Below, piece after piece: positions 61,379 through 64,000 of a DNA stretch of 64,000 nt. Numbering within the stretch: the first letter of the stretch is position 1; each line of letters opens with the position of its first letter. Made by a program: the position numbers and the translations under genes. The notes beneath the pieces were generated by a model. That model ran no database searches and was not told the DNA's origin. It worked only from the letters and a program-made list of their open reading frames with translations. Source of the stretch: a virus (Duplodnaviria; Caudoviricetes); IMG/VR virus record IMGVR_UViG_3300031994_000044, positions 42,308 to 106,307 of that record. One strand, given 5' to 3'.

Positions 61379-61682
61379 GAGCATTTTTATTCATTTGTTC
61401 AAGTTTTGCAAATGCATTGATTGTTTCACCGCCATAAGTTCTTGTATTACTATTAGTTGTTTCTTCCATTTCTTTATTTATTTCGTCTTGTTCTCTATTG
61501 TGTTTGCTAATCAAAGAACGCCTGTCTTGTATTGGCAAACGCATAATCATATCCCAAGACATTCCAATATGTTTGAAACAGCCCCATTCTTCATCAAGAA
61601 GATTTTTAGCATACTCATTCGGGGATATTGAGAAATAGAAATTGGTCAAGTTGCAGAAAGGTAGTGAAAGAGCCACCTCCAA
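61368..61682 (-). CDS. Tail assembly chaperone C-terminal extension (probably expressed by frameshift)
   Basis: 'LLDEEW...HIGMSWDMIMRLPIQDRR' resembles small tail chaperones. It overlaps the previous gene in the +1 frame and has no in-frame ATG before the conserved part. Confidence 0.6.
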   Translation of the reverse strand: MEVALSLPFCNLTNFYFSISPNEYAKNLLDEEWGCFKHIGMSWDMIMRLPIQDRRSLISKHNREQDEINKEMEETTNSNTRTYGGETINAFAKLEQMNKNAQKR

Positions 61683-62910
61683 GACTCTCAGGCCTTTCTA
61701 CTGTAATAGTATAATCGACACCAGGTTCATTATCTTTCATATATTTTCTCAATGCCGAAGAATCTCTTACATTCATCTTCATTATAAAATCTGAAATATA
61801 ATTTTTATCGGTAATACCATCAATTGCCATAATAAGAAGTTTCATTCTGTTTGTCAAAAGATGGTTGAATTTCAGTGCTTCCTCTTCGTCCATGTTTTCA
61901 GCCCAATTTTCTATTGTTCTGATTGCCTTACGGACATTTACTTTTTGTTCCTTATCAACATCGTTATCACTTTCAATAAAGGTATCAAGAGTGCTTACAT
62001 AATCCTTTATTGTATTCATTTTAAGTCTTGCATCTTCCGCTTTATTCATCTTTTCAAGCAATACATTGTCACGATGTGTGGGGAATCTGAATTTAACAAT
62101 TTTCTTGCTGACAGGAAGTTCGAACTCAAACCATCCATTTGTATCACCTTTTAAGTTAAACTCTTTGTATTTAAGTTTGGATAAATCAACAACGGATTCA
62201 AATTCTTTTCCTGTTGCATCGTCAGTTGCAGTTATCGGGTATTCGTTGCCGTAACCGCTTGCTCTAAGGAATAATATAATAGCGTCTCTATCGCCCTCAA
62301 GTAAATCCATGGGGTCTATTTCTTGGCTTAAAAGTTTTTCCTGAAGAATATAATCAAGAATTAAATTGTCACGATAAAGGTTTGGTGACACAATCATATT
62401 TTCATCATAAGCAGTAAGATATGCGACTGAAGCCTTGGAGATTTTGTCTTTATAACCCTCACCCTTTGAAGGCAATGGTATAACATCAAATGCTGCTTCT
62501 GGATTATAATTACCTTTTGAAGGTATATATTCCTGTTCAAGTCTTGCCGATGTTGTGTCTATTGCTTTTGCTAATTTTTCCTTTTTATCATTTTCTGTTT
62601 TATTTATCATATCAACAATATTTGAAGTGTTTGACACTTCATTTTTTTGTTTTGTACTTCTTTTCTTAATTTTAAGGTCCTCTTCTTTTCCACCGTTTTC
62701 AATATATTGTTTGATAACATCCTGCTCGGCTTCGTTTATTAACCTTAATTCTTCTTCAATATCTTCTTTTGTATACCTTTTTGTTCCGTCATTGTTTAAA
62801 GCCTCTTTCATTCTTTTTTCTGTTGATTTTTTTGTATTTTCATACATTTCAAAAGAAACTTTCAACTGTTTAAGAATTTTTTCTTGTGAATATCCGTTTG
62901 TATCTGCCAT
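61615..62910 (-). CDS. Baseplate hub / tail assembly chaperone (T4 gp26-like)
   Basis: 'VIPLPSKG..Y', 'YLTA.DENMI.S', 'LL.GDRDAI..FLR..GYG..Y', 'F.LP.SK..VKF', 'DS..LRKY.....PG.D'. Confidence 0.75.
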   Translation of the reverse strand: MADTNGYSQEKILKQLKVSFEMYENTKKSTEKRMKEALNNDGTKRYTKEDIEEELRLINEAEQDVIKQYIENGGKEEDLKIKKRSTKQKNEVSNTSNIVDMINKTENDKKEKLAKAIDTTSARLEQEYIPSKGNYNPEAAFDVIPLPSKGEGYKDKISKASVAYLTAYDENMIVSPNLYRDNLILDYILQEKLLSQEIDPMDLLEGDRDAIILFLRASGYGNEYPITATDDATGKEFESVVDLSKLKYKEFNLKGDTNGWFEFELPVSKKIVKFRFPTHRDNVLLEKMNKAEDARLKMNTIKDYVSTLDTFIESDNDVDKEQKVNVRKAIRTIENWAENMDEEEALKFNHLLTNRMKLLIMAIDGITDKNYISDFIMKMNVRDSSALRKYMKDNEPGVDYTITVERPESLGGGSFTTFLQLDQFLFLNIPE

Positions 62911-62913
62911 ATT

Positions 62914-63415
62914 TTAATGTCTTTTTTTCTTATTTTCTTCAATTATCATTTTTTCAGTATAAATATTTATCCATTCTTTTAATTCTTTTAAGACTTTTTG
63001 GGGGTTTTTATTTATGTCATGTTCCCAAAATCTAATTAAAGGTATGTGCTTGTTTTCGGCCCATTTATTTTTTACCTCATCAACACGATGGTTTTTTTTC
63101 TGCATGGGTGTCATTTCTTCATATGTTTTGTCATAACCATGCCATTCACCAATAATCCCCATCTATTTCAACTAATATTTTACCACCATTAGGTATTTTT
63201 ATTACAAAATCATAAAATCTTCCTATTTCTTCTGATTTATATTGATATACATAATCTATTCCTAATTTATCTAAAAATTCTTTTGCAAATTTTTCTTCTA
63301 ATTTTGAAGTTCCGTATTCAAAATGTTTTTTCTTATATGTACAGTTTTTTTTAGAATTTTGTTTTGCTGTTTTTTTGGTTTTAACTAATTTTTTATTTTT
63401 TATCGGTTGTGCCAT
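62914..63415 (-). CDS. DUF559/Vsr-like endonuclease split into two frames (recoded gene or pseudogene)
   Basis: The first half 'SKLE..F...LD.LGI.Y..QY...FYDF...VEIDGDYW*' and the second half 'HG...D..KNKWA....IPLIRFWEHDI' join into one canonical domain. Confidence 0.75.
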
Positions 63416-63578
63416 TTATATAATCAATAATTTCGTTTATATTATAGTTTCTTTTAGTTATATAAAATAATTTTATACCATTTTCTTCACAAAGTTCTCT
63501 TTTTTTATCGTCACGTTCTTTTTGTGTTAAATAATAAAGCCTTAAATCATCCCATGTTGGTACATTATTTTTTTCCAT
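63393..63578 (-). pseudogene. Short ORF resembling only the C-terminal part of a DUF559/Vsr-like endonuclease
   Basis: 'QKERDDKKRELCEENGIKLFYI' matches the C-terminal D..K...C...GI.L..I pattern; the catalytic N-terminal half is absent. Confidence 0.45.
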
Positions 63579-63584
63579 GTTCTT

Positions 63585-63920
63585 TTAATTTTTATTTTTA
63601 TATTTCTTTTTAAAATAATAATTATGCTCTTTCAATATTTTTAAATTATCGTCTATTTTTTTGCATTCTTCTTTAAATTTAGTCACTTCTTCAAATGGAA
63701 GCATAAACCATTCCCCTTTCACTTTGTCAGAATAATATTTTTGATGAAGTTGTTTTTCCATAACAAATGGAAATTCGGTTTCATATTGGTCAATTAGATA
63801 TATTTCGCCTGAATTGCCTGTTTGGAGTTTTTTTATTCTGTTTTCAACTTTACCTGTTGTAACCCCAATCTTGTAAATATTTTCCTTTCCATTTTCACCT
63901 AATAAATAGACAACACCCAT
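63585..63920 (-). CDS. GIY-YIG nuclease domain protein (T5orf172/MUG113-like)
   Basis: 'VYLL...YKIGVT...VENRIKKLQTGN...EKQLH..Y....VKGEWF'. Start MGVVYL at 63920. Confidence 0.85.
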   Translation of the reverse strand: MGVVYLLGENGKENIYKIGVTTGKVENRIKKLQTGNSGEIYLIDQYETEFPFVMEKQLHQKYYSDKVKGEWFMLPFEEVTKFKEECKKIDDNLKILKEHNYYFKKKYKNKN

Positions 63921-64000
63921 TTTTTTTATTAAAAATAGCACTTTTATATACTTTTGTCAATAAAAAACCAAAAAAAGAACTATTTATGTTAAAAATAGTC

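Follow-up and report, generated by a model that had tools for sequence, protein, structure and literature searches.

Genes at the locus

The window, i.e. the whole stretch of DNA analysed (64,000 nucleotides), is the last 64 kb of a 106-kb IMG/VR record (IMGVR_UViG_3300031994_000044), estimated at 29% of a huge phage genome from the rumen. The genome has 31.7% G+C and 22 tRNA genes, and a megablast search of phage GenBank gave no match. Near the end of the window, a predicted Vsr-like/EDxHD nuclease gene is found on the minus strand between a T5orf172/MUG113-domain gene and a T4-baseplate-like structural gene, and it is cut in two by seven bases which start with a stop codon. The sequence reads TGG TGA A TGG CAT, preceded by GAT GGG GAT TAT and followed by GGT. 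The upstream ORF ends at ...EIDGDYW* whereas the conserved downstream reading, WHGYDK...KKKRH, lies in the +1 frame, and joining of Trp89 to the His gives a protein of 164 aa. The description given by the sequence-only reading, a TGG TGA A TGG break separating the two parts of a nuclease, is exact. The features are collected in Table 1.

Table 1. Features of the interrupted nuclease gene and its neighbours (window positions unless stated otherwise)
Feature	Coordinates	Strand	Details
Sequence context of the break	63163-63136	-	GAT GGG GAT TAT to GGT
Break with flanking codons	63151-63139	-	TGG TGA A TGG CAT
Upstream ORF	63146..63415	-	89 aa
Downstream ORF in the +1 frame	62914..63162	-	conserved part starts at WHGYDK
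N-half	63149..63415	-	89 codons; K-rich N-terminus, then YGTSKLE, YDF and E83-I-D85-G-D-Y-W89 motifs; probably cassette-derived
Take-off codon	63149..63151	-	TGG (Trp89)
Stop codon	63146..63148	-	TGA, directly after the take-off codon
Spacer	63145..63145	-	one base (A)
Landing codon	63142..63144	-	TGG, matches the take-off codon
Resume codon	63139..63141	-	CAT, inferred catalytic His (His91 in the numbering of the read-through construct P0001)
C-half	62914..63141	-	75 codons plus stop; H-G-Y-D-K, P-M-Q-K, R-V-D-E and W-E-H-D-I motifs to K-K-K-R-H
Endonuclease stump	63393..63578	-	61 codons; C-terminus of a zinc-finger plus nuclease homing-endonuclease gene; overlaps the start of the N-half by 23 nt
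TAA AAG AAC between T5orf172 ORF and stump	63579-63587	-	
T5orf172/MUG113-domain gene	63585..63941	-	syntenic upstream neighbour; Pfam E 2.6e-15
T4-baseplate-like structural gene	61615..62910	-	syntenic downstream neighbour of nearly all family members; Pfam PF12322
Cassette arrangement in relative L011	2790-3110, 1789-2802, 1229-1808 (of L011)	-	decayed old N-half copy, intact 337-aa endonuclease, new N-half with a 10-nt gap, C-half
tRNA-Trp(CCA)	C1:27627-27698 (of the genome, outside the window)		ordinary 7-nt anticodon loop

A read-through construct of the gene (P0001) matches phrog_559 across the break (residues 22-163, E 1e-11), and it also matches 780 full-length relatives of about 150-180 aa. 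In these relatives the motif is E[IV]DG.[YF]-[YFW]H[GS], without length variation in 120 intact proteins, and hence exactly 7 bases are extra in the window. The construct falls below the Pfam gathering scores, with 18.3 bits for DUF559 against a cut-off of 20.6 and 18.0 for MTES_1575 against 38.2, although many homologs carry precomputed PF04480, PF18741 or PF03852 hits. An AlphaFold2 model of an intact homolog (P0004, pLDDT 82) was compared with the solved structures using Foldseek, and the top hits were the catalytic domain of the homing endonuclease I-Bth0305I (3r3p, TM 0.70 on the target), a DUF559-like protein (3hrl) and Vsr (1cw0). The residues E40, D69, E83, D85, H91 and D111 are invariant among the sequences compared and are present in the window, and their mapping onto Vsr and I-Bth0305I, in which the His is thought to be the general base, is inferred from PMC3239194. 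The break thus lies between E83-x-D85 and the inferred catalytic His, and neither half has a complete active site. In comparison to I-Bth0305I, the gene is also phage-borne and conserves E, D, E-x-D, H and D in the corresponding places. On the other hand, it is free-standing and not intron- or intein-encoded, it has a short K-rich N-terminus in place of NUMOD repeats, and it keeps a conserved position directly upstream of the baseplate-like gene in about 90 huge-phage contigs (200-412 kb), which is unusual stability for a gene of a homing-endonuclease family.

Conservation of the break among relatives

A search for short relatives returned 19 N-half proteins, 51-100% identical, ending at ...DG[DG]YW* and one more ending at ...DGDYY*, and a search of 50%-identity cluster representatives added six N-half-only clusters ending in [YF]W. 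The window's own two halves are on record from 5 and 4 contigs. The site lies about 860 nt from the contig end, but more than 20 independent assemblies carry diverged sequences with the same kind of break, so that an assembly or sequencing error is very unlikely.

Three narrow DNA patterns found nothing in IMG/VR, whereas a DNA scan which fixed nothing after the stop found 15 family loci (numbered L010, L011 and so on; in the list of gaps below, a slash joins loci sharing one gap). With later scans, including a pattern for Y-Y-stop, this gave 14 distinct gap lineages with the window included. Written as take-off codon, stop and spacer, and landing codon, the gaps of 7 nt are TGG, TGA A, TGG in the window; TGG, TAA A, TGG in L012 and in L016/L023, which count as separate lineages; TGG, TGA G, TGA in L018; TGG, TGA G, AGG in L021; and TAC, TGA G, TAC in L051. 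The gaps of 8 nt are TGG, TGA CA, AGG in L010/L031; TGG, TAA TT, TGG in L020/L049; TGG, TAA AA, TGG in L022/L042; and TGG, TAA AA, AGG in L026/L035. The longer gaps are TGG, TAA AAA, AGG in L015 and TGG, TAA AAA, TGG in L030/L032 (9 nt); TGG, TAA ACAA, TAC in L011/L039 (10 nt); and TGG, TGA CAAAA, TGT in L025/L040 (11 nt). A His codon (CAY) follows in every case, and every C-half is open and conserved through ...KKKRH. A stop directly follows the take-off codon in all 14 lineages; the scan pattern for the TGG cases required this, but the protein search, which had no such bias, shows 19 N-halves ending right after W. The leader peptides of annotated C-half ORFs imply further gaps, and those of most protein-only relatives (P0124-P0146, P0138, P0150-P0159) were inferred from peptides only. 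Among these, the leaders M[VA]TIGRH of the proteins P0150 and P0151 imply a 4-nt gap, TGG TAG R CAY, in which the landing codon (AGR) overlaps the stop, and this is the shortest variant and the only one using TAG.

The landing codon equals the take-off codon in 7 of 14 lineages, six with TGG/TGG and one with TAC/TAC (L051). In six more it is a one-base variant of TGG (AGG in four, TGA and TGT), and in L011 the pair TGG to TAC agrees at only one of three positions. None of AGG, TGA and TGT encodes a residue seen at this position in 120 intact proteins, which fits a codon that is re-paired but not decoded. However, half of the landing codons are imperfect, and the matched codons could simply be the same ancestral codon duplicated at a cassette junction. 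Spacers in relatives are 1-5 nt and 72% A.

The gaps put the C-half in frame +1 (7 lineages), +2 (5) or 0 (2), and no single frameshift or readthrough mechanism fits all of them. Conventional recoding differing by lineage would require a +1 frameshift at UGG-UGA-A in the window, giving ...DYW-E-WHG..., -1/+2 shifts in other lineages and stop-codon readthrough in the in-frame cases. The C frame of the window is open from ATG GGG ATT ATT through GGT GAA TGG, so a +1 shift anywhere in GGG-G...TGA would work, with a junction of DGDYWEWHGYDK or DGIIGEWHG in place of the DGDYWHGYDK of a hop, and a stop codon in the A site may be expected to stimulate such a shift, as in RF2 (prfB). Yet three different mechanisms would be needed at one conserved site, UGG to GGU re-pairing is poor, and the products would carry 1-3 extra residues inside the catalytic loop. 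Moreover, L018 has TGA directly before CAT in the C frame, so only resumption exactly at CAT works there. In case of RF2, an overlapping slippery codon and an SD-like stimulator are needed, and it cannot explain the +2 and in-frame gaps or L018. This reading is thus unlikely.

Separate translation of two halves which assemble non-covalently is also improbable. In the window and most +1-frame lineages an ATG, created by GAT-GGN, opens the C frame, and gene callers annotate such C-half ORFs. However, L015, L018, L022 and L030/L032 have no ATG, GTG or TTG in the C frame before the His, the ATG is a by-product of the Asp-Gly codons, the leader would add 5-15 unrelated residues, and the break lies inside the E-x-D...H active-site loop. 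Reinitiation at the ATG inside A-TGG-CA is rejected because that ATG is out of frame with the C-half. Removal of the gap by a very small intron, by editing or at the DNA level before expression would be frame-independent, like a hop, but it is very doubtful since no known splicing system removes 4-11 nt. Folds of about 100 nt around the gap in 15 loci gave z-scores near 0 and no shared hairpin, Rfam gave no relevant match, and gaps without homopolymer runs (for example TGAGTGA) argue against polymerase slippage. An alternative genetic code is rejected, as the genome uses TAA, then TGA, then TAG as normal stops and has no suppressor tRNA, and the frames differ between lineages. The phage encodes its own tRNA-Trp(CCA), the tRNA which would perform the hop, but with its ordinary anticodon loop a special tRNA-Trp is rejected.

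Selection on the halves and origin of the gap

The main rival explanation is a junction scar in a dead gene, in which a homing-endonuclease cassette inactivated the nuclease gene, the N-half is only cassette cargo or a homology arm, the stop ends a useless or separately useful fragment, and the C-half is an untranslated relic not yet decayed. The tendency of the interrupted sequences to have long terminal branches is in favour of it. On the other hand, near-identical pairs sharing the same gap show 6 synonymous to 3 nonsynonymous changes in the C-half (P=0.002) and 21 to 7 in the whole gene (P=3e-10). The all-interrupted clade L016/L023/L020/L049 (support 98) is saturated at synonymous sites while dN is about 0.2 in both halves. 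The C-half of the window is 79-80% identical to the syntenic intact genes L066 and L078, and its pN/pS of 0.18-0.21 is the same as for intact-intact pairs. As the alleles are mosaics, much of the constraint seen in C-halves (for example L010 against L031) may predate the gap, and the clean post-gap evidence rests on few substitutions. Nevertheless, all 14 DNA lineages and the further protein-only lineages keep a complete open C-half with every invariant residue, no gap exceeds 11 nt, and every gap begins with a stop and ends one codon before the His, none of which is needed for a scar. The scar is therefore disfavoured, though it remains the most serious alternative.

Almost all family members, intact or interrupted, sit directly upstream of the same baseplate-like gene in contigs of up to 412 kb, and a T5orf172 gene often lies upstream. 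The interrupted state is scattered on the trees. A single origin of the gap is rejected, since 10 changes are needed and at least 6 are forced by well-supported branches. The nearest intact relatives mostly carry TTT, TAT or TAC rather than TGG. Identity drops exactly at the gap in L010/L031 (96% to about 78%) and in L012/L022; in these pairs the N-halves are 96-100% identical at the DNA level and the C-halves about 70-80%, with the breakpoint falling within about 15 nt of the gap. Similarly, the N-half of the window is only 52-59% identical to the syntenic intact relatives, far less than its C-half.

The arrangement in L011 may explain this pattern. Reading 5' to 3', it holds a frameshifted old copy of the N-half which stops being homologous just after ...EVDGG-T, a 337-aa endonuclease with treble-clef zinc fingers and a DUF2726/Vsr-like domain (phrog_559), a new complete N-half ending in TAC TGG TAA ACAA, and the resident TAC CAC... 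C-half. In L011 the gap is thus at the 3' junction of a homing-endonuclease cassette carrying a replacement N-half, which is the architecture described for T4 mobA and gene 60. The stump in the window matches the C-terminus of the 304-337-aa endonucleases sitting directly upstream of the interrupted gene in L010, L011 and L022/L042, and the overlap with the start of the N-half is the same in L010 and L022. However, a strict link between gap and endonuclease is not supported, because the endonuclease is directly upstream in only 4 of about 13 interrupted lineages, is absent upstream of L016, L018, L021, L025 and L026, and also precedes two intact genes (L109, L117). It occurs in several copies per locus and in both orientations near this region (L026/L035, L003-L005, L052, L066, L088 and other loci), so the neighbourhood is a hotspot for selfish nuclease genes.

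Translational bypass as the probable reading

The most likely explanation (probability about 0.6) is that TGA-A-TGG forms a short, hairpin-free translational bypass gap inside the catalytic motif. A ribosome carrying peptidyl-tRNA(Trp) on UGG would meet UGA in its A site, the tRNA would unpair, the mRNA slip by 7 nt, the tRNA re-pair with the next UGG, and decoding resume at CAU to give one enzyme reading ...EIDGDYW-HGYDK.... The hop and its efficiency are inferred from comparative sequence evidence alone, without protein, RNA or reporter data. The efficiency may be very low, as there is no conserved hairpin and no gene-60-like nascent-peptide signal is evident from the sequence, in which the K-rich stretch lies 58-82 residues upstream and residues 25-30 before W89 are ordinary fold residues. 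The sequence-only reading, which proposed a hop between the two TGG codons restoring E.DG.YWHG, is supported as far as sequence alone can do so. Its alternative of a mobile insertion is not really a rival, since the gap appears to be the junction of a homing-endonuclease cassette, whereas its suggestion of low, recoding-controlled expression remains an inference. The gap probably arose when such a cassette inserted into the motif-coding DNA of a resident nuclease gene and brought its own replacement N-half. It would then also break the target site of that endonuclease and throttle the output of the nuclease, and in the window the invading endonuclease has decayed to the stump.

In nature, bypassing is known from T4 gene 60 and its homologs and from one yeast mitochondrial lineage. 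In case of T4 gene 60 with the MobA element (Huang 1988; Bonocora 2011; bioRxiv 10.1101/2022.08.31.505936), a stop likewise directly follows take-off, resumption is at the next codon in any frame, and the gap lies at the 3' end of an endonuclease cassette supplying a replacement 5' part, as in L011. Here, the gap is 4-11 nt rather than 50 (or 20), no take-off stem-loop is found, the take-off tRNA is Trp (once Tyr) rather than Gly or Asp, the interrupted gene is itself a nuclease of a homing-endonuclease family rather than a topoisomerase, the endonuclease is of the zinc-finger plus Vsr-like type rather than HNH, and there is no sequence homology. Synthetic stop-hops in E. coli (Weiss et al. 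1987; O'Connor 1989; reviewed in PMC5009743) are also short hops over a stop between matched codons without elaborate signals, and in the in-frame cases 9 nt encode one residue (compare L015 and L030). Those were engineered constructs, and the 2016 review states that natural cases were expected but that no natural in-frame stop-hop is known (PMC5009743), whereas the present site is natural, fixed at one codon of one gene family and kept in many lineages. The bypassed inserts (byps) of Magnusiomyces capitatus mitochondria (PMC5009743) are many, natural and tolerated with imperfect matching (two out of three), as with AGG, TGA and TGT here, but they are 27-55 nt, lie in a mitochondrial system with an unused A-site codon and occur at many sites in many genes. 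In the literature searched, neither a natural short stop-hop nor recoding in this nuclease family was found.

The family offers more than 20 natural variants of one putative hop site differing in gap length, frame, stop codon and landing codon, which form a ready-made mutational series for learning what a ribosome needs in order to hop without hairpins or peptide signals. Such genes are called as two fragments or as pseudogenes, and the finding would extend the link between homing endonucleases and recoding beyond T4. Further, it can tentatively be speculated that structure-free stop-hops of 4-11 nt are a working way of decoding genes in huge Bacteroidota phages and are spread by homing-endonuclease cassettes. 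A zinc-finger endonuclease would here target the catalytic-motif DNA of another nuclease gene, one selfish nuclease invading another, and the terminal TGG-stop-spacer patch of the replacement N-half would at once make the allele immune to re-cleavage, keep the invaded enzyme functional by ribosome hopping and hold down its dose. Short-range bypass would then be a recurrent evolutionary device rather than a curiosity of T4.

The endonuclease stump also lies in frame with the T5orf172 ORF, separated from it only by TAA AAG AAC, and AAT and AAC flank this stop like a second hop. As T5orf172 homologs end at the same place, this is most likely a coincidence.
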